From: an uncultured Acidobacteriota bacterium
GTDB taxonomy: Bacteria > Acidobacteriota > Vicinamibacteria > Fen-336
Direction: 5' to 3'
Length of the DNA: 64,000 bases
Assembly: GCA_963742595.1 (NCBI GenBank)
Contig: CAVUMT010000001.1
Coordinates: forward strand, 1,767,633-1,831,632
The notes under the pieces are model-generated. The model worked only from the letters and a program-made list of their open reading frames with translations, had not been told where the DNA came from and did no database searches. This document shows, in pieces, positions 3,159 to 32,555 of this stretch. Every line of letters begins with the position of its first letter. The first letter of the stretch is position 1. A program made the position numbers and the translations under genes.

Positions 3159-4721
3159 TCAGAACCGGTAATAGATGAACGGGCTGTAGGTGCCCGCGAG
3201 CACCTTCAACAGGCTCAAGCCCAATAGCACGATGCACGCCATGGCAATACCCCCCGCCTCGAGCGGACCCCAATGCGGCGGCCAACTGGCGATCACCACT
3301 CGCAGCCGTGAGGGCGACTCTCTCATCAGGCGGCCGTTCCACCATGGAATCGAGAGGGTCACGCCGACCGCCAGCGCGATCAGGATCAGAGGTGACGAGA
3401 AGACACCCCACGTGTACTCGCCCGTGAAGTCGGGATGGTGGCCGAACATCGCCGCCGTGTAGTCGCCCGCCTGGGGCAGTGTCGTCGCACGGAAGATGAC
3501 CCAGCTGAACAGAATGACCGTGAGCGTGTAGAGACGCTCCAGCGGTTGCCGGAGCCAGGCGCCACGCGTCCCGACGACTTCGCCCTGTGGCGGCCTGCGG
3601 AACACCCGCTCGATCACGATAAACGTGCCGTGGTATAGACCCCAGGCCAGGAAGGGCCAGCCCGCCCCATGCCAGAGGCCACACAGTACGAAGACCAGGT
3701 AAAGGTTGAGGACGGTATGCGCGGAGGATCCCCGATTGCCGCCCAAGGGGATGTAGAGATAGTCCCGGAACCAAGTCGACAACGACACGTGCCACCGCCG
3801 CCAGAACTCCGTGATGGAGCGGGAGCTGTAGGGATGCAAGAAGTTCTCAGGGAACGTGAAGCCCATCATGCAGCCCAGTCCGATGGCCATGTCGGAGTAG
3901 CCGGAGAAGTCGTAGTAGATCTGCACGGCGTACGCCACGGCTCCGAGCCAGGCCGCGGGCGTCGAAAGCGCCGCCGCATTCACGCCGAAGACCGCGTCGG
4001 CGGCAACGGCAGCCGTGTCGGCAATCAGGACCTTCTTGGCGAGACCCAAGGCGAAACGGCTGGCGCCGTAGGCCATCTGGGTCCGAGTGATGACGCGCTC
4101 CTGGAGTTGGGCCGCGATTTCCCGATAGCGAACTATCGGGCCGGCGACCAGCTGGGGAAACATCGTCACATAGCACGCGAAATCGACCAGGTTCCGGATG
4201 CCTCGTGTGTCGCCCCGGTACACATCGATCGTGTAGCTCATGGATTGAAACGTGTAGAAGCTGATGCCGATGGGGAGGCTGATCTGGACGATCGAGTGCC
4301 ACTGCCACGCCTGAAGCCCGCTCGCCCCGAGCAGCTGGTTGAGGGCGCTCTGCCCGAAGTGGAAGTACTTGAACCAGGCCAGGAAGCCGAGGTTGCAGCA
4401 CAAAGACGCCACGAGAGCGACACGCTGCCGTCGGCTGCGCAATGTCCCCGAGCCGCGATCCTCCTGCCCCCTGCGGCGAAAGTCCCTTTCGATCGCCCAG
4501 CCCGCCGCATAGTCGATGACGATGGACAGGATCATGACCCAGGTGAGGAGTGGCTCGCCCCACGCGTAGAAGATCACGCTCGCTGTGAGCAGGAAGCCGT
4601 GGGTCAGCATGCGCATCGGCGCGCGATCGCCGCCGTGCTTCTGGATGAAGAAGAGCGCCCAATAGACGCCGAGGACGATCGGCAGGTAGACGAACAAGAA
4701 GATGGGAGAGCTGAATACCAT
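3159..4721 (-). CDS. MBOAT family membrane-bound O-acyltransferase (AlgI/DltB-like)
   Basis: Multi-TM protein; true start at the internal Met MVFSSPIFLFVYLPIVLGVY (ATG at complement 4721). MBOAT motifs FWRRWHVSLSTWFRDYLYIPLGGNR and conserved His. The ORF-track extension to 5072 is upstream read-through. Confidence 0.85.
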   Translation of the reverse strand: MVFSSPIFLFVYLPIVLGVYWALFFIQKHGGDRAPMRMLTHGFLLTASVIFYAWGEPLLTWVMILSIVIDYAAGWAIERDFRRRGQEDRGSGTLRSRRQRVALVASLCCNLGFLAWFKYFHFGQSALNQLLGASGLQAWQWHSIVQISLPIGISFYTFQSMSYTIDVYRGDTRGIRNLVDFACYVTMFPQLVAGPIVRYREIAAQLQERVITRTQMAYGASRFALGLAKKVLIADTAAVAADAVFGVNAAALSTPAAWLGAVAYAVQIYYDFSGYSDMAIGLGCMMGFTFPENFLHPYSSRSITEFWRRWHVSLSTWFRDYLYIPLGGNRGSSAHTVLNLYLVFVLCGLWHGAGWPFLAWGLYHGTFIVIERVFRRPPQGEVVGTRGAWLRQPLERLYTLTVILFSWVIFRATTLPQAGDYTAAMFGHHPDFTGEYTWGVFSSPLILIALAVGVTLSIPWWNGRLMRESPSRLRVVIASWPPHWGPLEAGGIAMACIVLLGLSLLKVLAGTYSPFIYYRF

Positions 4722-4854
4722 GCGGGACGCTCGACCCGGGGCTCCCAGGTCCTCGGCTCGATCCCCCCGATCGCGCAGCGCGTACTTTTGCACAGTGCTC
4801 ACCGACGGACAACCGCTACCGCCTCCCCGGCGTACCGTGTTCAGGCGTTCTTGG

Positions 4855-6130
4855 TCAACGCCCCCCCGGCCACCCAGGGGCGCTCCGTGGAATCTCCCTG
4901 AGCAACGCCTTGCGGAACGGCTCGTAGTCCACCTCCGTCGAGTGCCGGGGCGTGCGCATGAACGTCCGAAGGGTCGTGCGCGCCTCCTCCGCGACGCGCG
5001 ACTCCAGGTCCGCGGGCAGCCGGTAGCGGCCCACGATGGCGTTGGCCACGAGCTGGCCCTGCAGCTCGGCAAGGGGCCAGATGCAACCGACGGGCTGCAA
5101 GAGGCCGATGAAGAAGAGGCTCCGGAGCCGCGGGTGGAAGCAGCGCAGGTAGAGGGGGACGGGGCCGCTCGAGAAGTCGACGAGCGAGCGGTCCAGGAAG
5201 GGGAACGTGATCCGGAATCCCGTGGCCGCGATCACGGCGTCGAATTCCTCGACGCGATCCGTCCGCGAAGCGGACGGATTTCTCTTCAAAGCCGGCCACA
5301 TCCGGCCGAGGGTGAATCCTTCCGTGTCGAATGAAATACAGCAGCTCCGAGTTCACGACCGGATGTGACGAGAGGAATCGGTGGTCCGGTCGGGGGAGAC
5401 CGTAACGCTCGAAGCTCCCCGTCACGAGGCGCAACAGCACGACTCGAGGAGCCGGGCCCGCACGGGGCGCGGCAGGAAAAGGATGCCTCGAGTGGAGCAG
5501 CGTCCGACGGCAAGCCCGAACAGGAACTTGGGGACGAAGTGAGTAGCCCCGACGCATGCTGATCCCGGTGAAGGCAGAGACTCTCGCGGTCTCGACCGCG
5601 ATGTCGCAAGCGGAGTTGCCTCCGCCGACCACGAGCACCCGGCGGTCCCGGTAGGGGGCCGCGCTCTTGAAGGCATGGGAGTGGACGAGCTCCCCCGTGA
5701 AGCGCCCGGGATAGTCCGGCATGCGGGGGTCCCAGTGATGGCCGTTGGCGACGAGCAGGAAGTCGAACCGCTCCGCCGACCCGTCGCCGAGCGTGACGCG
5801 CCACCCTTCCCCGTCGGAACGGCTCTCACCACCTCCGTTCCGAAACGGATGTGGGGTAGCACGTCGAAGCGCCGCGCGTAGCCCTCGAAGTAGGCCTGCA
5901 GCTCCCGGTGGCCGGGGTAGTCGGCCTGCTCCGGCGGCCACGGGTAGTCCGAGTACTGCGAGAGGGCCTTGGAGCTGATGATGTGCGTCGTCTCGAAGAC
6001 GCTGGAGTGCGAGGGTCCGGGATCGAAGACCCAGTTGCCGCCCACGCGGTGGTTGCGGTCGTAGACGACCACGTCCCGGAGGCCGGCCTGGAGCAGGTGC
6101 TTGGCCGCGGTGATCCCGGAAGGACCGGCG
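4855..6130 (-). pseudogene. flavin-containing monooxygenase (FMO-like), split over at least three frames
   Basis: FAD GxGxxG (CVIGAGPSGITAAKHL) in one frame. NADPH GxGxxG (VLVVGGGNSACDIAVE) in a second. C-terminal FMO segment (FFIGLLQPVGCIWPLAELQ) in a third. At least 3 frameshifts. Confidence 0.6.
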
Positions 6131-7240: not shown

Positions 7241-8665
7241 CTCGGGCGTCGTCGTCGAAGTTCTCGGTGGGGGGCGGCGAGGAGGTCTGCCACTCGAGGC
7301 CGGTGGCGGGCCAGGGGTTCGCGGCGGCGATCTTGCCGTAGCGCATCGACCAGGCGAGGTAGAACATCGGGATCAGGTAGCCCACGCCCAGGATCGATGC
7401 GCCCGCGGAGGACATCACGTTCAGCACCTGGAACTCCGGCGGGGTAGACGTGGTAGCGCCGCGGCATGCCCAGGTAGCCCAGGATGAACTGCGGGAAGAA
7501 GGTCAGGTTGAAGCCGACGAAGACGATCACCGCGGACACCCGCGCCCACCACTCCGGGTAGAGCCGGCCCGTGATCTTGGGCCACCAGAAGTGCAGCCCG
7601 CCGAGGTAGCCCATGATCGTGCCCCCCACCATGATGTAGTGGAAGTGGGCCACGATGAAGTAGGTGTCGGTCACGTGGATGTCGAGGCCCAGGGTGGCCA
7701 GGAAGAGTCCGGTGAGGCCGCCGATGGTGAAGAGGCCGATGAAGCCGAACGCGTAGAGCATCGGGGTCTGCCAGGAGATCGAGCCCCGGTAGAGGGTGGC
7801 CATCCAGTTGAAGACCTTGATCGCGGAGGGGATGGCCACCAGGAAGCTCAGGGCGGAGAAGATCATCGCGGCGTAGACGCTGAGCCCCGTCACGAACATG
7901 TGGTGGGCCCAGACCAGGAAGCTGATCCCCGCGATGGCCAGGCTCGACATGGCGATGAAGCCGTAGCCGAAGACGCGCTTGCGCGAGAAGCAGGTCACGA
8001 GCTCGCTGATCACGCCCATGGCGGGCAGGATCATGATGTAGACCGCGGGGTGCGAGTAGAACCAGAAGAGGTGCTGGAAGAGGATGGGGTCGCCGCCCCG
8101 GGTGGGGTCGAAGAAGCCGAAGTTGAAGACGCGCTCCAGGGCCACGAGCAGGATGGTCACCGCGATCACCGGGCGTGCCCAGGATCTGGATGACGCGAGG
8201 TGGCGTAGTGGGCCCACACGAACAGGGGCAGGCGGAACCAGGTCAGGCCGGGGGCCCGCATCTTGTGGATGGTCACGATGAAGTTGAGGCCGGTGAGGAT
8301 CGAGGAGAAGCCGGTGATGAAGATCGCCGACGCCGGCGGCACGACCACGCTGGTTGGAGTAGACGACGTGCTGTACGGGCGTGTAGAAGGTCCAGCCGGT
8401 GTCGAGCCCGCCCACGACGAGCGCGTAGAGCGATGAAGGCGCGCCCGATCACGTAGATGTACCAGGAGAGCAGGTTGATGCGCGGGAAGGCCAGGTCCTT
8501 GGCCCCGATCATGAGGGGGATGAGGAAGTTTCCGAGCACGGCGGGGATGGCGGGGATCAGGAAGAAGAAGACCATGATCACGCCGTGGGCGGTGAAGAGC
8601 TTGTTGTAGGTCTCGGCGGTGACGAGGCTCCCCGTGGGCTCCACGAGGTGCAGGCGGATGAGCAC
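7185..8665 (-). CDS. coxA: cytochrome c oxidase subunit I (frameshifted in at least 3 places)
   Basis: Hallmark CoxA segments spread over four ORF-track frames: [64 protein letters not shown], and C-terminal [14 protein letters not shown]. Confidence 0.85.
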
Positions 8666-23311: not shown

Positions 23312-24995
23312 ATGAAGGGACGAATCACGGCCGCTTGGGCGCTGGCGACCCTCCTGCCCCTGGCCGGTTCGGCCTGGGCGCAGAGTTCGGCGTCCGGGTC
23401 GACTGAGGAAAAGGGATCCACGAGAACGGTCAAGAAGGAAGACATCAAGACGTGGACGATGACCGTCGACGGAAAGGAATGGAGCGTACGACCGGCCGCC
23501 CCCACCGTCGACGGGGACACCGGCCTCTTCCGACTTTCCTCGGCCTACACGCTTCCGCGGCGCGCGTTCTCCTTGAGCCTCGGCCGCGACAACTACGACC
23601 GCGATCCCAAGGGGATCGACTACTCCGAGCACGGGCTCAACGTCGGCTACGGCGCGACGGATCGAGCTCGAGCTCTTCGGCCACATCGGGGTGCAGCACC
23701 GGACGAAGGCCCACTATCTCTTCCAGCCGGGCTTCTGGAACGAGGCCCCCTTCATCAACTCGGGCTGGGAGACGGGCTTCGGCGACATCAGGATCGGAGC
23801 CAAGTACAAGATCCTCGACGACTACCTGGGCGAGGGCGTGGGCCTCGCCTTGAAGGGCAAGGTCAAGTTCGGCACCGCGGACGAGGCGAAGGGCCTCGGC
23901 ACGGGAACGACCGCGTTCGGGGTGGACCTCGTCCTGTCCAAGACCATCAACTACGCGGTGGACCTCCACGCGTCGATCGGCTACGAGGTCACGGGAGATC
24001 CGGACGGCGTCGATCTCGCCAACGCCTTCAAGTGGGGCGTCGGCCTGAACATTCCCGCCTGCCGCTGGTTCCAGCTCCAGGCCGAGGTGACGGGCAAGGT
24101 CTACGGCGACACGGCGCCGCACCAGACCGATGCCACCGACCTCATCATCGGCCCGGCGGTCTGGTTCGCCAAGGGCTGGTTCGTCCGCCCGGCTTACTCC
24201 TACGCGCTCAACTACGACGACCACGGGGTGGGCGGGTCCACGGCCAAGAAGTCCGGCATTCAATTTCGCGGTGGGCTACCACGGCGGGACGCCGTGCTGC
24301 GAGGTGTACGTGCCGCCCCCGCCGCCGCCGGCACCGGTCAACCGGCCGCCTACGGTGTCCCTCGACTGCGTCAAGGACACGGTTCTCCAGGGTGAGACGA
24401 CGCCCTGCAACGCGACCGCGGCCGACCCCGACGGCGACCCCCTGACCTACACCTGGTCCACGAGCGCGGGGCGCATCACCGGCACCGGCGCCAACACCAC
24501 CCTCGATACCGGCGGCGTTCCCTGCGACACCACGATCACGGTGACCGTGCAGGTCTCGGACGGCCGCGGCGGCACGGCGAGCGCTATCGGACTCGCGTCC
24601 GCGTCCGCTGCCCGGAGAAGGCGAAGCCCGAAGCGGTGACCTGCACGTCCGGCGGCTTCCCGCGGAACCTGGCCCGCCTGAACAACGTGGACAAGGCCTG
24701 CCTGGACGACGTGGCCAGCAAGCTCCGGTCCGATCCGCGCAGCCGCGTGGTCGTCGTGGGCCATGCCGACAGCTCCGAGCGCTACGCCGACGTCACGGGC
24801 CGCAAGCGCGCGGAGGCGGTGAGGAACTACCTCGTCAAGGAGCGCGGAGTCGAAGAGGCCCGCGTCACCGCGAAGAGCGCCGGCGCCACCAAGCCCCTCG
24901 ACACCGGCAAGACCGCCGCCGCCCGGGCCAAGAACCGGCGCGTCGACGTGATCTTCGTGCCGGAGGGCGCGACCGTGCCGGAGGACGACGACTAG
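23312..24995 (+). CDS. OmpA-family outer membrane protein (signal peptide, beta-barrel region, PKD-like domain, C-terminal OmpA peptidoglycan-binding domain), about 3 frameshifts
   Basis: Signal MKGRITAAWALATLLPLAGSAWAQ. PKD-like DPDGDPLTYTWSTSAG. OmpA_C motifs VVVVGHADSSERYADVTGRKRAEAVRNYLV...NRRVDVIFV. Confidence 0.7.
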
Positions 24996-25016
24996 CGCGT
25001 CGCTTCCGTTTCCTTC

Positions 25017-25051
25017 AGGGGCGCGGCCTTCGGGTCGCGCCCCTTTTTTCT

Positions 25052-25052
<1 letters not shown>
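25017..25052 (+). terminator. rho-independent terminator (11-bp GC stem, TTCG loop, T6 run)
   Basis: agggGCGCGGCC ttcg GGTCGCGCCCC followed by TTTTTTCTT immediately after the ompA-like stop. Confidence 0.8.
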
Positions 25053-26281
<1,229 letters not shown>

Positions 26282-26364
26282 GACCGTCTCCCATTCTCGG
26301 CCGGCGGCGCACGAGGGGCAACGCCGTGCTTCACACGCGGAGCGGGCATGCTCCAAAATCGCTC

Positions 26365-26393
26365 TTGACAGTTTGGAGGTCGGTACCTACATT
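26365..26393 (+). promoter_or_regulatory. near-consensus sigma70-type promoter (TTGACA-17 nt-TACATT) driving a short transcript toward the tRNA island
   Basis: ctcTTGACAgtttggaggtcggtaccTACATTgggg in the AT-richer rtcB / tRNA-island intergenic region. Exact 17-nt spacer. Confidence 0.55.
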
Positions 26394-26399
26394 GGGGTG

Positions 26400-26637
26400 C
26401 TGAGACTCAAGTGACGATTCGAATTCTCAATTCGAAGTGCACGTCGGTGGCGAGGCCATCTTATTTGGCCGCGCTACGACCCGTCGTCGGCGTGTCGATA
26501 TCCATGGCCGAGCTCTGGATCGACCGGCTGAGCGGCGCGCTGGATAGCGGGAAGGAGGGCGAAACGCCCTAAAGGGTCTGCACTCATTGAGAAACAGGCC
26601 TTCTAGGGCGATCCCCTTGAAGGCCTTTTTTTGTTTT
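26400..26637 (+). ncRNA. candidate small RNA (~235 nt) bounded by the promoter above and an intrinsic terminator
   Basis: No convincing CDS (only a 22-aa ORF at 26504-26572 without an SD). Perfect 8-bp inverted repeat ttcgaatt-ctc-aattcgaa (26418-26436). Possible long-range pairing tctcaat / attgaga and gtgca / tgcac closing about 130 nt. Confidence 0.3.
26596..26637 (+). terminator. rho-independent terminator (aggccttc ... gaaggcct stem followed by TTTTTTTGTTTT)
   Basis: 8-bp stem, 15-nt loop with internal ggg/ccc, T7 run on the plus strand only. Confidence 0.7.
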
Positions 26638-26794
26638 GGTCTGCACTCCGCGGAAATACCGGAGCCAGGCCGGAGGGAGGTTGTGTCTTCGCGACGGGAG
26701 AGTCGTTAGGTGCCGTGGGCTCACCAGCTCGAAAGAGCGGGGTCTTTGACAACCGACGCATGTCGATGGGCCGGTGAACGACACCGGTCCATGT

Positions 26795-26868
26795 TCGGCC
26801 TGGGTGTGGAGGAAGCATCCCACGCTGCCCGCGTGGGGGGACGGGTTCGATTCCCGTAGGCCGATCCA
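26795..26868 (+). tRNA. tRNA-Gly(GCC)-like, non-canonical (D-arm does not fold canonically; pyrimidine at position 37)
   Basis: Acceptor tcggcct/aggccga. T-arm acggg-ttcgatt-cccgt. Anticodon stem ccacg/cgtgg with loop ctGCCcg. CCA encoded. Confidence 0.45.
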
Positions 26869-26870
26869 GA

Positions 26871-26945
26871 GCGAGTGTCGTCCAACGGCAGGACCTCGGG
26901 CCTCCAACCCGATGACGACCGGTTCGAATCCGGCCACTCGCTCCA
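26871..26945 (+). tRNA. tRNA-Gly(UCC) with C at position 33
   Basis: Acceptor gcgagtg/cactcgc. D-stem gtcc/ggac. Anticodon stem tcggg/cccga with loop ccTCCaa. T-loop ttcgaat. Discriminator t, CCA. 2 nt after the previous tRNA. Confidence 0.6.
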
Positions 26946-26951
26946 CGTTCC

Positions 26952-27021
26952 CCCTCTGTCAACGCAGCATGCCGGGCCCTTGACCCGTGCGGTGGTGGTT
27001 CGAGTCCACCCGGAGGGACCA
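26952..27021 (+). tRNA. degenerate 70-nt tRNA-like element (acceptor and T-arm intact; D and anticodon arms do not fold canonically)
   Basis: Acceptor ccctctg/cggaggg with one G-U pair. T-arm ggtgg-ttcgagt-ccacc. Discriminator a, CCA. The central 40 nt give no assignable anticodon. Confidence 0.3.
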
Positions 27022-27049
27022 GTAGCGAATCCGTTCATGGCCACCATCT

Positions 27050-27125
27050 CGGCTCGTGGCGCAATCGGTAGACGCGGCACGTTCAGACCGTGCAGATCGG
27101 GGTTCGAATCCCCGCGAGCCGACCA
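27050..27125 (+). tRNA. tRNA-Leu(CAG)-like with Leu-type D-arm but no long variable arm (class II converted to class I)
   Basis: Acceptor cggctcg/cgagccg. D-arm tggcgcaatcggtagacgcg closely matches bacterial tRNA-Leu. Anticodon stem gcacg/cgtgc with loop ttCAGac. Variable region only agat. T-arm cgggg-ttcgaat-ccccg. A73, CCA. Confidence 0.5.
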
Positions 27126-27155
27126 TCCCCGCGTCACGCGCGGGACCATCCCGGG

Positions 27156-27229
27156 GGGGACATAGTCGAAGGGAAAGACACCGCGTTGTCAGTGCGGCAG
27201 TACGGGTTCGAGTCCCGTTGTCCTCGCCA
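27156..27229 (+). tRNA. tRNA-Asp(GUC)
   Basis: Acceptor ggggaca/tgtcctc. U8. Anticodon stem ccgcg/tgcgg with loop ttGTCag. T-arm acggg-ttcgagt-cccgt. G73, CCA. Atypical D-loop gaagggaaa. Confidence 0.7.
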
Positions 27230-27245
27230 GGATGGGCTCGTCTGT

Positions 27246-27321
27246 TGCGGAGGGAAGGGACGGCGACCTTGGAGGTCTCATAAGCCTCGAAATGCGGGTT
27301 CGATTCCCGCCTCCGCCACCA
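27246..27321 (+). tRNA. tRNA-Met or tRNA-Ile2 (CAU)
   Basis: Acceptor tgcggag/ctccgcc with a 1:72 mismatch. Anticodon stem gaggt/gcctc with loop ctCATaa. T-arm gcggg-ttcgatt-cccgc. A73, CCA. Confidence 0.6.
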
Positions 27322-27323
27322 AT

Positions 27324-27397
27324 AGCCGGTTCGTCCAATGGCAGGACAGCGGTCCTACAAACCGCATACGGGGGTTCGATTCCCTCACCGGCCACCA
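27324..27397 (+). tRNA. tRNA-Val(UAC) with C at position 33
   Basis: Acceptor agccggt/accggcc. D-stem gtcc/ggac. Anticodon stem gcggt/accgc with loop ccTACaa. T-arm ggggg-ttcgatt-ccctc. A73, CCA. 2 nt after the previous tRNA. Confidence 0.6.
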
Positions 27398-27405
27398 GTC
27401 TCGAT

Positions 27406-27481
27406 GGTGAGCGTAAGATAACGGCCATTCGGGGAGGCTGTGTCCCTCCCAGTGCCGGTTCGATTCCGGCCGCTCACCCCA
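27406..27481 (+). tRNA. tRNA-His(GUG) with G-1:C73
   Basis: Extra 5' G before acceptor gtgagcg/cgctcac with discriminator C (the His identity pair). Anticodon stem ggagg/cctcc with loop ctGTGtc (U37). T-arm gccgg-ttcgatt-ccggc. CCA. Confidence 0.65.
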
Positions 27482-27487
27482 GAACAC

Positions 27488-27562
27488 GTCGACGAAGTGT
27501 TACCGGAAGCACGGCGCCCTCGTAACGCGCAAGCGCGGGTTCGACCGCCGCCGTCGGCTCCA
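27488..27562 (+). tRNA. tRNA-Thr(CGU)
   Basis: Acceptor gtcgacg/cgtcggc. D-stem gtgt/gcac. Anticodon loop ctCGTaa. T-loop ttcgacc with a G:G mismatch at 53:61. U73, CCA. Confidence 0.55.
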
Positions 27563-27566
27563 CTCC

Positions 27567-27642
27567 GACCAGCGAGCTTGTGTGGTCATAGCGCTCGGCT
27601 GAAGCCCGAGAGAACGTGGTTCGATTCCACGGCTGGTCACCA
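27567..27642 (+). tRNA. tRNA-Phe(GAA)
   Basis: Acceptor gaccagc/gctggtc. D-arm agcttgtgtggtcatagc. Anticodon stem ctcgg/ccgag with loop ctGAAgc (G37). T-arm cgtgg-ttcgatt-ccacg. A73, CCA. Confidence 0.65.
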
Positions 27643-27646
27643 ACCT

Positions 27647-27760
27647 TCGCTCACGCTTGTCAACCAAGGCGTGAGCTACGGTTGGCAAGCCACGCAAAGG
27701 TTGTCCGCCGTAGCATTCGCGAAGGCGGACCCAACATTCCACTCTTTCGTCAGCACTCTC
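27647..27760 (+). other. highly structured leader region between the tRNA array and the MopB gene (stacked stable hairpins)
   Basis: Hairpin gctcacgc-N12-gcgtgagc (27647-27676). Hairpin gctacgg-N26-ccgtagc. Hairpin tccgcc-N14-ggcgga. Downstream tRNA T-arm remnant ggcggttcgattgaatcga at about 27797-27815. Confidence 0.4.
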
Positions 27761-27923
27761 AGACGGCGCTAAGAAGCTGAAAAGCGGTGCCGTTACGGCG
27801 GTTCGATTGAATCGATTTCCGTCGTACGCGATTCCTTCCGGGAAGAACAGCAGGTGCTGCGGCCACTCGGTACGCTTCACCCTCTGGAGACCGAGGCGAT
27901 CGGACCTACAATGGCAGCAGGCC

Positions 27924-29951
27924 ATGTCGATCCAGATCGTTCGCGGCGCCTGCGGGCACGACTGCCCGGACACGTGCAGTTGGATAGTGGAAGCGCAGAA
28001 CGGTACTGCCGGGAAGCTGTACGGCGACCCGGCGCATCCGTTCACCCGCGGCACCCTCTGCGCCAAGGTTAACCATTATCTCGAGCGCGTCTACCACCCC
28101 GATCGCGTCCTCCATCCGCTGAAGCGCGCGGGCCGCAAGGGCGAGGGACAGTTCGTCCGCGTAACCTGGGACGAGGCGCTGACCGAGATCGCGGCGCGGT
28201 GGAAGGCGATCGTCGAGGAATCGGGCGCCGAAGCCATCCTGCCCTACAGCTCGGCGGGCGTGCAGGGGCTGATTCAGCAGGCCTCGCTCGACATGCGGCT
28301 GTTCGGGTCGATGGGGTGCAGCGGCCTCGATCGCAACATCTGCGGCGCGGTCGCTTCCGCGGGCCTCACGTCCACGATTGGAACCGGGACCGGAATCGAT
28401 CCGGAGGAAGTTGTCCATAGCCGGTACGTCGTGTTGTGGGGGACGAACACGATCGTCACGAACCTCCACTTCTGGCCGTTCGTGCGCGAGGCGCAGCGTC
28501 GGGGCGCGAAGATCATCGTGGTGGATCCGGTCCGAACCCGCACTGCGGAAGCGGCCGACTGGCACCTTGCGATCAAGCCGGCCAGCGACGCGGCGCTGGC
28601 GCTCGCGATGATGCACGTCATCGTCCGCGACGGCCTGGTGGATCACGAGTACGTCTCGCGGTATGCGGTCGGGTACGAGGCGCTCGCGGAGCACGTGCGG
28701 CAATACGCTCCGGAGAGCGTGGCGAACACGGTCGGCCTGCCGGCGAGCGACATCGAGCGATTCGCGCGCGAGTACGCGACGACGCAGCCGTGCCTGCTGC
28801 GGCCGCTCATCGGCCCCGAGCACCATCGCAACGGCGCGATGCAGTTCCGTACGATGGCCTGCCTTCCGGTACTGACCGGAGCATGGAGGCATCGCGGCGG
28901 CGGCCTCGCCCGGTCCACGCACAAGCTGCAGTTCGCGGTGCTGGCCAAGGATCGCGTGGAAATGCCGGAGGTGCACAAGCCCGGCGTCCGCGTGCTGAAC
29001 ATGCGCGATCTCGGCAAGGATCTGTGCGACCTGCGGCCACCGATCCGATCGCTCATCGTCTATGGCGCCAATCCGATGGTGTCGATGCCGAATCAGAGCC
29101 GGATTCGCGAAGGCCTCCTGCGCGACGACCTGTTCGCGGTCGTGCAAGACCTGTTCGTCACGGACACCGCGTTGTACGCCGACTACGTGCTGCCGGCCAC
29201 GAGCCAGATCGAGCATCTGGATCTGTCACCCGCCTGGGGGCACCTGTATCTGGCGTTGAATCGCCCGGCCATCGCGCCGCGCGGCGAGTCGGTGTCGAAC
29301 ACCGAGCTCTTCCGACGGCTGGCACGGGCGCTGGGCCGCACGGAGGCGTACTTGTTCGAGAGCGACGAGTCCATGCTGCGCGCGGCGCTGGCGAGCGGGC
29401 ATCCGTGGCTCGACGGGATCACGTACGAACGGTTGTGGAAACAGGGATACGCGCGTCTGAACCGTCCGGAGGACTGGCGCCCCTTTGCAAACGGCGGGTT
29501 CCCGACGCGGAGCGGGAAGGCAGAGCTCTACTCCGAGCCGCTGCGCGAGGCCGGGCACGACCCGCTGCCATCGCCCGGCGAGATTCGATCGAACGGCGGC
29601 CTGCAGTTGATCACCGGGAAGCAGCTGCACTTCCTGAATTCGGGATACAGCAACCAGGACCGGCATCGCCGGCGGGCGGGCGAGTTGTTCATCGAGATCC
29701 ACCCCGACGACGCGAGGACGCGAGGGGTCGCCAACGGGGATTACGTGTCCGTCCGAAACGGGAGCGGCGAAGTGCGCGCCGTCTGCCGTGTATCGGACCG
29801 CGTCCGGCCGGGCGTGGCCTGGATGCCATTCGGCGGCTTCACGGATGCGGGTGGCAAGCGCCTCTCGGTCAACGTCCTCACCCAGGAGGAGCCGACCGAT
29901 TGGGGCGGCGGAAGCGGTTTGTACGATGCGTTCGTAGAGGTTGAGCGCTAA
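27924..29951 (+). CDS. molybdopterin-dependent oxidoreductase, MopB family (assimilatory nitrate reductase / formate-dehydrogenase-like catalytic subunit), cytoplasmic
   Basis: N-terminal 4Fe-4S motif CGHDCPDTCSW. Molybdopterin_binding and molydop_binding domains throughout. 675 aa, intact. No Tat signal and no partner subunit genes. ATG at 27924; the ORF-track TTG at 27807 lies inside the tRNA-remnant region. Confidence 0.75.
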   Translation: MSIQIVRGACGHDCPDTCSWIVEAQNGTAGKLYGDPAHPFTRGTLCAKVNHYLERVYHPDRVLHPLKRAGRKGEGQFVRVTWDEALTEIAARWKAIVEESGAEAILPYSSAGVQGLIQQASLDMRLFGSMGCSGLDRNICGAVASAGLTSTIGTGTGIDPEEVVHSRYVVLWGTNTIVTNLHFWPFVREAQRRGAKIIVVDPVRTRTAEAADWHLAIKPASDAALALAMMHVIVRDGLVDHEYVSRYAVGYEALAEHVRQYAPESVANTVGLPASDIERFAREYATTQPCLLRPLIGPEHHRNGAMQFRTMACLPVLTGAWRHRGGGLARSTHKLQFAVLAKDRVEMPEVHKPGVRVLNMRDLGKDLCDLRPPIRSLIVYGANPMVSMPNQSRIREGLLRDDLFAVVQDLFVTDTALYADYVLPATSQIEHLDLSPAWGHLYLALNRPAIAPRGESVSNTELFRRLARALGRTEAYLFESDESMLRAALASGHPWLDGITYERLWKQGYARLNRPEDWRPFANGGFPTRSGKAELYSEPLREAGHDPLPSPGEIRSNGGLQLITGKQLHFLNSGYSNQDRHRRRAGELFIEIHPDDARTRGVANGDYVSVRNGSGEVRAVCRVSDRVRPGVAWMPFGGFTDAGGKRLSVNVLTQEEPTDWGGGSGLYDAFVEVER

Positions 29952-30102
29952 GTTAGGGTCCAGGCCCTTCCACATACTGTCGAGCACTTTGCGCGACTCG
30001 CGCAGGATGTCTAGACCGGCGCGCGGTGATCTTCACGCAGCGCCGCGGCTTTCCGCCGCGCTCAGGGGTGGAATCGCTCATCGAGGACGTCAACAGGCCC
30101 TT

Positions 30103-30267
30103 CTATTCGAGGCGGCGTAGAGTGATGTACACCGCAGCTGGTGCGACGGTCCTTCCGGTTCGTCGGTGGATTTCGTCCACGATGGGCACACCATAGACGC
30201 CATCGCCGAGGTGGAGAATCGCGAGGAGGACCATGTGCTCGAACTCGCCGAGCGCTTCCCGAGTCAT
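30103..30267 (-). pseudogene. PadR family transcriptional regulator interrupted by an in-frame TAG after the HTH
   Basis: MTREALGEFEHMVLLAILHLGDGVYGVPIVDEIHRRTGRTVAPAAVYITLRRLE-TAG-KGLLTSS...; the PadR-like sequence continues downstream of the stop. Confidence 0.55.
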
Positions 30268-30436
30268 GCCGCACCCGCGTTCAGCGATGTCTGGTCCAAC
30301 AACGACAAAAACATACAACGCTAATAATAAGGACGGCCGGCACGGTTTGTTCACGGTGCGTTCCGAAGCGAGTTCACACGCCTGACCCATTCGCCAATCC
30401 GGTTCCAACTCGCGAAAATGCGGCTCACCAACCGCT

Positions 30437-30511
30437 CCCCTCGTAGGCTAATGCATAGACCACCGGGTTACGAACCCGTCAGTGGAGGTTGGAGTCCTCC
30501 CGAGGGGACCA
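30437..30511 (+). tRNA. tRNA-Arg(ACG) with G at T-loop position 56 and a D-loop lacking GG
   Basis: Acceptor cccctcg/cgagggg. U8. Anticodon loop ttACGaa. T-arm ggagg-ttGgagt-cctcc. D-loop aatgcat (possible C19:G56 swap). A73, CCA. Confidence 0.6.
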
Positions 30512-30543
30512 TCCCCGCTTCGTCTAACGCACAGACGCATCAT

Positions 30544-30635
30544 CCCGGTCGGGAGGCCAGCGCCTCGAGCGGGCTTATACCCCGTTGCGCCAGATCAGCG
30601 CCTAGATCCAGGGGCAGCACCTGGGGCCGGGACCA
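30544..30635 (+). tRNA. class-II-sized (92 nt) tRNA-like element with non-TPsiC T-loop; anticodon unassigned (possibly UAU)
   Basis: Acceptor cccggtc/ggccggg with a G-U pair. A73, CCA. T-stem ccagg/cctgg with loop ggcagca. Candidate anticodon stem gcggg/cccgt with loop ctTATac. Confidence 0.25.
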
Positions 30636-30636
30636 C

Positions 30637-30726
30637 GGAGAGGAAAGGGCGAGCGGGGAGCCCAGCACACTGCTAACGTGCCGAGGCCAGGCGGCCGCGA
30701 GAGTTCGAATCTCTCCCTCTCCGCCA
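30637..30726 (+). tRNA. tRNA-Ser(GCU), class II
   Basis: Acceptor ggagagg/cctctcc. D-stem gggc/gccc. Anticodon loop ctGCTaa. Long variable arm cgaggccaggcggccgc. T-arm gagag-ttcgaat-ctctc. G73, CCA. Starts 1 nt after the previous element. Confidence 0.65.
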
Positions 30727-30750
30727 TTGACCTCGGGTGGCTCCTGAGTC

Positions 30751-30810
30751 AACTCCGTCCGGACGGAGTTGCTTCAGAAACTACTTGAGGTGACTCGTTC
30801 CGGAACGAGT
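30751..30810. repeat. two tandem perfect palindromes with TCCGGA cores (aactccgtcc|ggacggagtt and actcgttcc|ggaacgagt)
   Basis: 10-bp and 9-bp perfect inverted repeats 22 nt apart; the second ends exactly at the 5' end of tRNA-Cys. Confidence 0.6.
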
Positions 30811-30884
30811 GGTGGGTTGGCCGAGCGACGAGGCGCTGGCCTGCAAAGCCAGTTAGCGGGGTTTGAGTCCCCGACCCACCTCCA
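30811..30884 (+). tRNA. tRNA-Cys(GCA) with U at T-loop position 56
   Basis: Acceptor ggtgggt/acccacc. U8. Anticodon stem ctggc/gccag with loop ctGCAaa. T-arm cgggg-ttTgagt-ccccg. U73, CCA. D-loop without GG. Confidence 0.6.
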
Positions 30885-31029
30885 CCACGGATCCGAAACA
30901 GAGCTCAGCGGCGAGGCCGCGAACGAGCTGATACCCCCGGGCCGGCGGTGCGTGTCGCCCCACTTTCGTGGTCGGCGGTGCGCATTCCGCGTACGGGATC
31001 TAACGAAGGAGGTGTCAGGACTGGAGATG

Positions 31030-31054
31030 GCGGGTTCGACACCCGCCATCACCC
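31030..31054 (+). other. tRNA 3'-half fragment (T-arm plus acceptor 3' strand) without a matching 5' half
   Basis: gcggg-ttcgaca-cccgc followed by catcacc c. No complementary 5' acceptor within 80 nt upstream. No CCA. Confidence 0.35.
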
Positions 31055-31125
31055 ATTGGCTAGCTCAGTGGCAGAGCACCGAGCCATTAACTCGGGGGTC
31101 GCAGGTTCAAATCCTGCTCCAAAGT
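31054..31125 (+). tRNA. tRNA-like gene with canonical D- and T-arms but unusual anticodon loop (ccATTaa) and imperfect acceptor stem; no CCA
   Basis: D-arm tagctcagtggcagagca. Anticodon stem ccgag/ctcgg. T-arm gcagg-ttcaaat-cctgc. Acceptor cattggc/tccaaag pairs at 5 of 7 positions. Possible pseudo-tRNA or att-site remnant. Confidence 0.35.
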
Positions 31126-31445
31126 CGTGAGTCGTGAGTGCGGTCTCCGGAGGGCGGCCGTCGTGATCCGCCGGCCGATCGCGGGCGCTCGTGAGGTCCG
31201 CGGACGGCAGCGCGCAGAGGCGTCCTGAAGCGCGCGGATACCGGCCCCGCCCAAACACCCCGATCCCCCGGGGCGCTGCGCGTGACGCTCGGTCGAGGTC
31301 GCGCGTGGCCCTCTCGGGTGACGGGTGGATTCGGCGGGGCCTCAAGTCGCGCTCCATGCCCGAGGCGTGGCGGCCGACGTCCCGCCCTTCGGGGACCATC
31401 TTGTCGTCAGGCAGGCGATTGGATAGCGAGAAAGAGAGGTGCCCA

Positions 31446-32555
31446 TTGTGGGTTCTATTCCGTCGTTTCAAGGTTCGTGAGAACGAGCGCGGTCTCCTGT
31501 TCAAGGACCGCGATTTCCAGCGTGTCCTCGGTCCCGGCCGCCGCTTCGTCTGGGACCCCCTGCTGAACGTCCATGCCGACGTCGTGTCGGTGCGCGACGT
31601 GTGGCTCGACCACCGTGACCTGGAAGTGATCGTCCGCTCGGGCGCGCTCGAGGGAGAGGCGAAGGTCCTCGACCTCAAGGACCACGAGCGTGCCGTGGTG
31701 TGGGTGGACGGCCGCGTGGAGGCGGTCCTCAAGGCGGGCCTCTACGCGCTCTGGACGGTCTTCCACGACGTGCGGGTCGAGGTCTTCGACGCCCGCACGG
31801 TCCGCTTCGAGCACCCCGACCTCGCGGTCATCACCCAGGCGCGGAACGCACAGGCGCTCCTGGAGGCGGTGACCGTGGAGGCGGGCCACGCCGGTCTCTT
31901 CTTCAAGGACGGACGCCACGAGGCAACGCTCGCCTCGGGCGCCCACGCCTTCTGGAAGGGCTTCGGCAAGGCCCGCATCCTCGACGTGGACCTCCGCGAG
32001 CAGGTCGTGGACGTGGCCGGCCAGGAGATCATGACCGCGGACAAGGTGACGCTGCGCCTGAACGCGGTCGTGACCTTCAAGGTCGCGGATCCCCTGAAGG
32101 CCGTGAGCGCGGTGGAGGACTACCGTCAGGCCCTCTACCGCGAGGCGCAGCTCGCGCTGCGGGGCGTCGTGGGCACGCGCGTGCTCGACGCGCTCCTGGG
32201 CGACAAGGACGCGGTCGCCCGCGAGCTCGACGGCCTCGTCCGCGGCCGAGTGGCCGGCTTCGGTGTCGAGGTCGTGGCCCTCGGCATCCGCGACGTCATC
32301 CTTCCCGGCGAGATGAAGGACCTCATGAACAAGGTGACCGAGGCCCAGAAGGCGGCCGAGGCCGCCCTCATCACGCGCCGCGAGGAGACGGCGGCCATGC
32401 GATCGCAGGCCAACACCGCGAAGATCCTCGAGTCGAGCCCCACCCTGATGCGTCTGCGTGAGCTCGAGGTCCTCGAGAAGGTCGCGGAGAAGGCCAACCT
32501 GACGGTCGTCCTCGGCGAGAAGGGTCTCGCCGATCGTGTCGTCAAGCTGCTCTGA
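31446..32555 (+). CDS. SPFH/band 7 (stomatin-like) domain protein
   Basis: TTG start preceded by GAGAGG. ...FRRFKVRENERGLLFKDRDF..., two band-7 repeats, C-terminal coiled region. The ORF-track extension upstream to 31191 has no start codon support. Confidence 0.7.
   Translation: MWVLFRRFKVRENERGLLFKDRDFQRVLGPGRRFVWDPLLNVHADVVSVRDVWLDHRDLEVIVRSGALEGEAKVLDLKDHERAVVWVDGRVEAVLKAGLYALWTVFHDVRVEVFDARTVRFEHPDLAVITQARNAQALLEAVTVEAGHAGLFFKDGRHEATLASGAHAFWKGFGKARILDVDLREQVVDVAGQEIMTADKVTLRLNAVVTFKVADPLKAVSAVEDYRQALYREAQLALRGVVGTRVLDALLGDKDAVARELDGLVRGRVAGFGVEVVALGIRDVILPGEMKDLMNKVTEAQKAAEAALITRREETAAMRSQANTAKILESSPTLMRLRELEVLEKVAEKANLTVVLGEKGLADRVVKLL

Follow-up and report, generated by a model that had tools for sequence, protein, structure and literature searches.

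A candidate ribosome-dependent attenuator of transcription upstream of a long array of tRNA genes in an uncultured Acidobacteriota bacterium

What is made from the short promoter-to-terminator unit that separates rtcB from a tRNA gene array in an uncultured Acidobacteriota bacterium? We examined this unit in a stretch of 64,000 nt of contig CAVUMT010000001.1 (assembly GCA_963742595.1; hereafter the window, whose numbering is used throughout), which is part of a high-GC bacterial chromosome (a complete contig of 4.7 Mb) and whose closest RtcB sequences in GTDB belong to metagenome-assembled genomes of Vicinamibacteria (Acidobacteriota). A first, sequence-only reading had assigned positions 26365–26637 to a structured small RNA (sRNA) reminiscent of bacterial Y RNAs. 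With moderate confidence, we instead read the region as a ribosome-dependent transcription attenuator, built around a leader open reading frame (ORF), that would sense general translation speed and stands at the head of a long tRNA array. Our in silico comparison of related loci revealed a conserved ORF with conserved start, stop and spacing, two predicted, mutually exclusive hairpins, a link to a tRNA array along which no promoter was found, a near-neutral peptide and an unusual completeness of its amino-acid content. The parts of the unit, in the order of transcription, are as follows.

26365–26393, plus strand: sigma-70-type promoter, with the −35 box TTGACA at 26365–26370, a 17-nt spacer and the −10 box TACATT at 26388–26393
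26402–26413, plus strand: ribosome-binding region, with the Shine-Dalgarno (SD)-like GAGA at 26402–26405, a 5-nt spacer and the GTG start codon at 26411–26413
26411–26572, plus strand: leader ORF of 53 codons, MTIRILNSKCTSVARPSYLAALRPVVGVSISMAELWIDRLSGALDSGKEGETP, ending in Pro-TAA
26567–26580, plus strand: 5' strand of the predicted antiterminator, CCCUAAAGGGUCUG, made up in part of the final sense codon, CCC, and of the TAA stop (26570–26572), and pairing with 26595–26608
26581–26594, plus strand: apex of the antiterminator, in which a mini-stem of 3 bp (CUC/GAG) closes a triloop whose third base is the only freely varying position
26595–26608, plus strand: shared strand CAGGCCUUCUAGGG, used by the antiterminator as its 3' strand and by the terminator as its 5' arm
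26596–26637, plus strand: intrinsic terminator, with stem 26596–26608/26614–26626, loop CGAUC and a T-run at 26627–26632, then GTTTT

Both ends of the unit are as the sequence-only reading had described them. The promoter matches 10 of 12 consensus positions and ranks first of the four promoter-like sites in positions 24000–32000, where shuffled sequences give 0.5; transcription is predicted to start near 26399–26401. The terminator hairpin (26596–26626) folds with −20.1 kcal/mol (z = −3.94), and was missed by a simple terminator scan because of its long stem with one U·U mismatch. Termination at this site would yield a transcript of about 235 nt.

To follow the unit beyond the window, we compared it with related loci. 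Among 80 GTDB loci retrieved via RtcB, none had a leader homologue beside rtcB, even at 85% RtcB identity. Closer RtcB proteins, from a large protein collection, led to three contigs: L081, with an RtcB 94% identical, the same layout as the window and a tRNA array of 22 genes, and L082 and L083, with an RtcB 91% identical, rtcR between the unit and rtcB, and rtcA after rtcB. The unit is 93% identical to that of the window in L081 and approximately 73% in L082, with promoter hexamers and terminator unchanged. A scan of metagenome contigs with the terminator pattern GGCCTTCTAGGGNNNNCCCCTNGAAGGCC yielded 86 loci, representing 72 distinct sequences of the 354-nt region that are 52–87% identical to the window, and two pattern scans of viral contigs gave no match. 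Structure comparisons were based on a codon-anchored alignment of 71 sequences and on a run with 47. Both promoter hexamers are kept in the homologues, ATTGACA being nearly invariant and the −10 box reading TA(C/G)ATT; the terminator is likewise conserved, and most homologues have a perfect 13-bp stem, with a mean energy of −24.3 kcal/mol.

What lies between promoter and terminator is, however, different from what had been described, namely no credible coding sequence and only a 22-amino-acid ORF without an SD. That ORF is the C-terminal tail of the 53-codon ORF running from GTG at 26411 to TAA at 26570–26572, which is preceded by the SD-like GAGA. Homologous ORFs of 43–55 codons are open in 71 of the 72 distinct sequences and differ in length by multiples of three; the sole exception, L096, has lost its 5' half by rearrangement. 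An SD (GAGG, in this form in 69/71) occurs 5–7 nt ahead of the start in 71/71 ORF-bearing homologues, start codons alternate between GTG, TTG and, once, ATG, and the stop alternates between TAA and TAG, at 22–26 nt (mostly 24) ahead of the terminator pattern. The same stretch is free of stops in 0/71 sequences in frame +1, in 15/71 in frame +2, and in 21% of shuffled ORF bodies.

The encoded peptide, on the other hand, drifts. Summed entropies for codon positions 1, 2 and 3 are 44.4, 46.3 and 46.3, respectively, with no third-position excess. The pN/pS of the leader (Nei-Gojobori) is 0.7–0.9, and the median ratio of nonsynonymous to synonymous substitution rates (dN/dS) is 0.46–0.84 across divergence bins, as compared with 0.08–0.13 for rtcB in the same genome pairs, suggesting that the act of translation is conserved and not the peptide. 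Retention of a reading frame whose product drifts is what characterizes a regulatory leader ORF.

We also considered that the unit could be an ordinary gene for a 53-amino-acid small protein with its own terminator, the peptide acting in trans (for example, in tRNA repair or on the ribosome) and the array being expressed independently or by leaky readthrough. The dN/dS of approximately 0.8, with no third-position excess, speaks against such a gene, and so do the tendency of retained residues to change position and the 23 untranslated nt past the stop, whose conservation equals or exceeds that of the ORF and whose sequence is complementary to the terminator arm. Furthermore, searches of Pfam and NCBIfam with the leader peptide found no family, AlphaFold2 produced no confident fold (predicted local distance difference test score, 55; predicted template modelling score, 0.16), and no promoter was found for the array. 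A small protein would nevertheless account for the conservation of ORF, SD, start and stop, for residues T2, R4, R44, H45 and G61, which are kept despite variation of the third base, and for the 13 unnamed database proteins that have been called from the leader ORF, the only matches to a profile of the leader peptides among 5.8 billion. On balance, we consider this explanation unlikely.

Within this drifting sequence, what is retained is the range of amino acids. The number of distinct amino acids in the leader peptides and in four reference sets was as follows.

Leader peptides: mean 19.2 in about 53 residues; all 20 in 46% (33/71); minimum 17
53-residue windows of real proteins from the window: mean 16.0; all 20 in 1.7%
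Mononucleotide-shuffled stop-free ORFs: mean 17.0; all 20 in 1.9%
Codon-position-preserving shuffles: mean 17.6; all 20 in 4.3%
The other two reading frames: mean 15.6; all 20 in 0%

When residues were shuffled within alignment columns, the mean dropped to 18.60 ± 0.08 and none of 2000 shuffles reached the observed value. Trp occurs elsewhere in the peptide in 16/33 leaders without Trp in its usual column, as compared with 1/38 leaders with it; likewise, His occurs elsewhere in 10/14 leaders without His45 and in 7/57 with it, and Asp in 5/5 leaders without, and 7/66 with, the Asp of the usual column. Reduction to 13 clusters at 60% identity still gave a mean of 19.0, with Trp, His, Cys and Asp spread over many columns. 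This pattern is compatible with selection that keeps each amino acid represented, rather than with selection on the peptide sequence. The leaders contain no run or enrichment of codons for one sensed amino acid, which is their main departure from classical attenuators, and the leader of the window holds 17 of the 20 amino acids, with Phe, Gln and His missing.

The end of the ORF is also part of a possible RNA switch. Its last codon and stop (26567–26572) lie in the 5' strand of the antiterminator, so that the ORF overlaps a strand of the alternative structure; in turn, the shared strand (26595–26608) takes part in both hairpins, making antiterminator and terminator mutually exclusive. The antiterminator hairpin (26567–26608) folds with −18.8 kcal/mol (z = −3.64), and 0/200 shuffles fold as well. 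In 60/71 homologues, the fold of lowest energy includes this hairpin as long as the nascent leader ends short of the 3' arm of the terminator; with that arm present, the terminator prevails in 68/71 (mean energies of −17.8 and −24.3 kcal/mol for antiterminator and terminator, respectively). Among the 47 homologues, 93.6% of antiterminator cells are paired, as compared with 19–58% with a slid partner, and the variation of the free strand mostly preserves pairing (U to C opposite G in 14 sequences, G to A opposite U in four and A to G opposite U in five). In the mini-stem, C changes to U opposite G in 16/47, also preserving the pair, and in about 10 sequences of the set of 71 the change from TAA to TAG turns the sole A·C mismatch into a G-C pair. 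In a consensus fold without the 3' arm of the terminator, GGAGG (26554–26558) can alternatively pair with CCUUC of the 5' arm of the terminator. This GGAGG belongs to the first of two further elements inside the ORF.

26552–26559, plus strand: SD-like AAGGAGGG (codons Lys-Glu-Gly), in which GGAGGG is nearly invariant, 11 nt ahead of the stop codon and with no start codon after it
26454–26470, plus strand: small hairpin GGCCA-loop-TGGCC in ORF codons 15–20, in which 77.8% of cells pair

In the second of these elements, one pair swaps from G-C to C-G in five sequences, although RNAalifold does not pick the hairpin; it may be a pause hairpin for RNA polymerase or an incidental structure.

Could the unit be, after all, a stand-alone structured non-coding sRNA, Y-RNA-like, closed by a stem between its 5' and 3' segments and tied to rtcB? 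Taken alone, the single RNA sequence of the window folds with z = −4.3, and the two segments of the proposed closing stem are complementary in the window and well conserved. A terminated leader would also be a discrete RNA, and attenuator-derived sRNAs exist, such as rnTrpL (PMC7968998). Across homologues, however, only 68.6% of the cells of the closing stem pair (22–46% with a slid partner), 3 of the 12 pairs are nearly always absent, and compensatory changes are not counted more often than in shuffles. Of the two computational checks suggested with the sequence-only reading, folding with homologues revealed no consensus structure in the body of the unit: RNAalifold, with either 71 or 47 sequences, returned only the terminator and a 4-bp hairpin, with a covariation term of −0.09 and 0 compensatory pairs. 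The other, an Rfam search, found only tRNAs in the window; within 26394–26640 there was no hit at the gathering threshold, nor, generic look-alikes of terminators aside, with E allowed to reach 10; five homologous loci gave tRNAs only, the T-box covariance model had no match in the unit of the window, and the Y-RNA covariance models had none at 26394–26640 at either threshold. Moreover, RNA structure cannot explain the signature of the ORF, rtcB is found beside few loci, and the absence of a Ro60/Rsr gene, already stated in the sequence-only reading, agrees with the genes examined: 0/10 neighbouring ORFs scanned contained TROVE and no such family appeared among the genes called around the homologues. 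The promoter-to-terminator unit is thus real and conserved, but it does not behave as a structured non-coding or Y-RNA-like molecule, and we deem a stand-alone sRNA very improbable. The outcome that the sequence-only reading itself had named as incompatible with an sRNA, a 5' leader of a longer operon with readthrough of the hairpin, is the one that the comparative evidence favours.

What, then, would be read when the terminator is passed? Downstream of the unit the window contains the following features.

26638–26794, plus strand: conserved, promoter-less spacer into the tRNA genes, with a deletion scar at about 26716–26731
26795–31126, plus strand: tRNA gene array, the predicted regulated cargo, with nine genes in 26795–27642 and four in 30437–31126

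In most loci with enough downstream sequence, a same-strand tRNA array starts 82–111 nt past the terminator with tRNA-Trp(CCA); a minority lack the first tRNAs or carry a decayed array. Homologous arrays reach 26 tRNA genes and together cover all 20 amino acids, whereas that of the window is reduced to 13 genes. With many close same-strand tRNA genes in varied genomic contexts, they correspond to long tRNA arrays (L-arrays, sensu PMC8421152), their supernumerary status being putative. None of 66 distinct spacers, which are themselves conserved, contains a sigma-70-like site with at least 9/12 matches, and no other good plus-strand promoter precedes the tRNAs in the window. In contrast to this constant partner, the link with rtcB that had been proposed is not general: RtcB adjoins the leader only in the window, L081, L082/L083 (with rtcR between) and L162, and the upstream neighbours vary from locus to locus (glycosidase-like proteins, a histidine kinase, a transposase, small unknown proteins). 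These diverse neighbours and the rarity of rtcB adjacency indicate that the leader belongs to the array and not to rtcB. To judge from the loci compared, array, leader and promoter travel together.

An alternative for this layout is a constitutive partial terminator, or insulator, holding a horizontally acquired array at a low level, in which ORF and complementarity would be by-products and regulation, if any, would occur at the promoter, through a repressor bound to an inverted repeat near +20. Long arrays are indeed expected to be nearly silent (PMC8421152), control in Anabaena is exerted by a repressor at the promoter (PMC10272220), and the window has a perfect palindrome at +19 to +37 (26418–26436). 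This inverted repeat, noted already in the sequence-only reading as a possible protein operator, is perfect and unique in the window (0 expected by chance), but it is perfect only there, and 53% of its cells pair across homologues, so that the palindrome is not conserved and an operator is not supported; neither are there any TrcR-type direct repeats (TGTWNWWNWNNWGTANYNWA; 0 matches in the window at up to two mismatches). A mere by-product would not be expected to keep the 53-codon frame, with its start and stop, through the whole range of 52–87% identity (71/71, as compared with 21% of shuffles), and the amino-acid completeness argues for selection on what is decoded. An insulator is therefore, in our opinion, quite improbable.

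Three features expected of an attenuator were found in the unit: a conserved leader ORF with a ribosome-binding site, an intrinsic terminator before genes with no sigma-70-like promoter found between, and an overlap of the ORF with the alternative strand. From the layout of these elements, we infer that the leader is translated, in which direction the switch would operate and what its physiological trigger could be. A strong constitutive promoter would start the transcript, whose first 53 codons would be translated. During normal decoding, the ribosome would keep pace with RNA polymerase and sit on the Pro-stop site, where it would mask the antiterminator strand and the nearby GGAGG, letting the terminator fold and releasing the RNA of about 235 nt. 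If the ribosome were late, the antiterminator would form first and the polymerase would read into the tRNA genes. Such lateness could arise whenever a tRNA is lacking, uncharged or damaged, or when translation is slowed by a drug. Because the leader holds nearly every amino acid, it would sense general decoding capacity and not one amino acid; since no convincing conserved protector (1:2) hairpin was found among homologues, readthrough would also be expected if the leader were not translated. A ribosome with its P site on the last codon would cover both candidate strands, to judge from what is generally known of ribosome-protected fragments, and slow termination after a C-terminal Pro, the last residue in 70/71 leaders, is established in Escherichia coli. 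The stop-to-terminator spacing in the window is 23 nt; with a ribosome at the stop codon, termination in E. coli is full beyond approximately 27 nt between stop and hairpin, partial at 17–23 nt and variable at 17–18 nt (PMC4824070).

The same architecture could also serve another sensing logic, either an arrest peptide that stalls near the Pro-stop, in response to a ligand or to the state of release factors, or a coupled ribosome that blocks the terminator, with opposite polarity. Proline is the last sense codon in 70/71 leaders and the motifs INRH, LD and KEG are conserved among the peptides; the spacing of 23 nt is within the E. coli range of partial repression of a terminator by a terminating ribosome (PMC4824070), and the SD-like AAGGAGGG is located shortly before the stop. 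However, the conserved Asp lies at −8 or −6 from the stop and rare residues relocate, unlike the fixed geometry of known arrest peptides, dN/dS stands near 0.8 overall, and pairing with GGG places a further constraint on the CCC codon. Such a logic is not likely, although some peptide-level constraint is hinted at by the residues that are kept with free third positions (T2, R4, R44, H45 and G61), whether through an arrest peptide, a function in trans or an effect of the nascent chain on pausing.

Several observations weigh against an attenuator of the kind we propose, starting with those residues. The attenuator model does not explain why nucleotide sequence is conserved in codons 5–8 (mostly UUCUUCAAUUCG among homologues) and in the antiterminator loop, GCACUCAUNGAGAAC; the two are partly complementary, as a remnant of the proposed closing stem, with no covariation showing that they pair. 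One position of the antiterminator is unpaired in 21/47 sequences, and its columns barely vary, making the shuffle control on antiterminator pairing uninformative. The homologues were retrieved by the terminator sequence itself, so the shared strand and the 3' arm of the terminator are invariant by ascertainment, which leaves neither hairpin open to support from true covariation. The leader sequences are phylogenetically related, and the statistics on amino-acid completeness thus overstate their independence. The promoter scan of the spacers covers the sigma-70 type, and promoters of other types are possible. Finally, the copy in the window is slightly degenerate, with GAGA as SD, a U·U mismatch in the terminator, 17/20 amino acids and a decayed array; the mismatch makes the two hairpins nearly isoenergetic, and the switch may be partly decayed in this genome.

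The attenuator proposed here resembles the leaders trpL, hisL, pheL, thrL and ilv, and that of pheM-pheST, in its constitutive promoter, short translated-type ORF and intrinsic terminator before the structural genes. It would also share with them a predicted alternative hairpin that uses a strand of the terminator, a ribosome whose position would choose the fold, and a terminator more stable than the antiterminator. Unlike those, its cargo is tRNA genes instead of protein genes, its ORF is long (43–55 codons) and contains almost all 20 amino acids rather than one enriched, there is no convincing conserved protector hairpin, and the stop codon is inside the antiterminator strand. The short ORFs of toiL in topAI-yjhQ (PMC12121999) and of the vmlR leader (PMC9226507) are similar in that they report slowed ribosomes and relieve premature termination; these systems, however, act on resistance or toxin genes, through Rho or through stalling that a given drug provokes at certain codons, whereas here we find an intrinsic terminator, an all-amino-acid leader and a tRNA output.

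In Anabaena, long tRNA arrays stay silent until translational stress induces them along with rtcB, under the control of the TrcR repressor at the promoter (PMC8421152, PMC10272220). The trn operon of Anabaena sp. PCC 7120 and the arrays described here have in common a long, same-strand series of some 20–26 tRNA genes that covers the amino acids, supernumerary status being putative for the latter, and a functional or genomic link with rtcB; arrays of this kind are expected to be required when translation is stressed. Their control differs, because TrcR is a ribbon-helix-helix repressor acting on direct repeats over the −10 box and start site and our candidate is a cis-acting leader with a terminator. 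Bacterial Y RNAs from rsr-rtcB loci are also small transcripts beside rtcB in a context of RNA repair, but the unit differs from them in having no Rfam match, no conserved closing stem, no tRNA-like module and no rsr among the neighbours tested, as well as in its probable translation and its linkage to the array. As in rnTrpL of Sinorhizobium (PMC7968998), the terminated leader would be discrete (about 235 nt here, and predicted to be abundant), and an action in trans is possible in principle, although our analysis gave no indication of a trans target. A full-text literature search of incomplete coverage found no leader-ORF attenuator on a tRNA array. What would be new here is an attenuator with tRNA genes as its output and a leader that samples all amino acids, the attenuator principle being already known.

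The tRNA arrays showed other particularities. In the window, tRNA-Trp(CCA) and tRNA-Tyr(GTA), which follow the leader in L081 and many other loci, are deleted (26700–26735, as compared with L081 7290–7530), leaving the junction GTGGGC|TCACCAG. An insertion of 2.8 kb (27647–30435) also splits the array of the window: tRNA-Phe and tRNA-Arg, separated by 80 nt in L081, lie on either side of it. Within it, an ORF for a molybdopterin oxidoreductase (27807–29951; Pfam Molybdopterin, Molydop_binding and Fe4S4) runs on the same strand, and it is uncommon for a tRNA operon to enclose a protein gene. The Leu anticodons CAG and GAG occur in array tRNAs of just 76–77 nt (window 27050–27125, L081 6854–7009 and many loci), which thus lack the long variable arm that bacterial tRNA-Leu normally has. 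A gene at 31054–31126 is called by ARAGORN as a "tRNA-Asn" with an ATT anticodon, the CCA encoded at the 3' ends of array tRNAs was listed by a repeat finder (window 26842–27562), and uncalled fragments consisting of a T-arm plus CCA, probably decayed genes, occur at about 26984–27013, 27794–27808 and 31030–31050.

Two elements were noted in the spacers. The intra-array spacer element CTCGAAAGAGCGGGGTCTTTGACAACCGACGCATGTCGATGGGCCGGTGAACGACACCGGTCC (26728–26794) precedes tRNA-Gly(GCC) in the window and in many loci, and contains TTGACA with no −10 box. The spacer at 26638–26720, and its equivalents in L081–L169, contains a hairpin whose stem differs between loci yet stays complementary (GCCCG/CGGGC, GCGCG/CGCGT, CACTC/GAGCG), and which could be a processing signal or a second regulatory structure. 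In L147, an ORF that we take to belong to the IS21 family of transposases, from reading its sequence and not from a family search, lies directly upstream of the leader-array unit (3391–5073 of the oriented locus); this fits mobility of the array.

The neighbour on the other side of the unit is divergent and functionally related.

25052–26281, minus strand: rtcB, encoding an RNA ligase (Pfam RtcB, E = 8e-132), outside the unit

Exact look-ups of this RtcB, and of the database entry 100% identical to it, retrieved no record. Genes rtcR and rtcA, which flank rtcB in L082/L083, are both absent from the window and L081. Upstream of rtcB, L082 has the sigma-54-type site GGCATG-N4-TTGC (7328–7513), which reads AGCACG...TTGC in the window (26282–26364, minus strand) and AGCAGG...TTGC in L081; having lost the −24 GG, rtcB of the window and L081 must now be expressed differently. 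A search of positions 25000–31200 against a phage database gave rtcB as its sole match, with approximately 70% identity to phiCbK-like Caulobacter phages. The window is not a phage.

Long tRNA arrays are widespread, spread horizontally and are mostly silent, and to our knowledge the way in which they are switched on is known in one case only, that of the Anabaena TrcR repressor; likewise, we know of no earlier attenuator with tRNAs themselves as output. As a caution for the annotation of high-GC genomes, promoter-to-terminator units can hide regulatory ORFs initiated by GTG or TTG. If our interpretation is true, the unit would represent a new design principle for attenuators, responding to general rather than single-amino-acid status, in a portable element of approximately 270 nt, and it would account for the coupling of spare tRNAs to damage done to tRNAs, for example by anticodon nucleases, toxins or antibiotics. 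More tentatively, as a possibility that we would not yet call probable, the element could be a universal sensor of decoding capacity, a mini-gene selected to hold at least one codon for each amino acid, so that any tRNA shortage, charging failure or nuclease damage would turn on a full reserve of tRNAs, located in some lineages beside RtcB. It would then do in cis, and with no protein involved, what TrcR does in the response to stress, and would plausibly help soil Acidobacteriota to counter anticodon nucleases and translation-targeting antibiotics.

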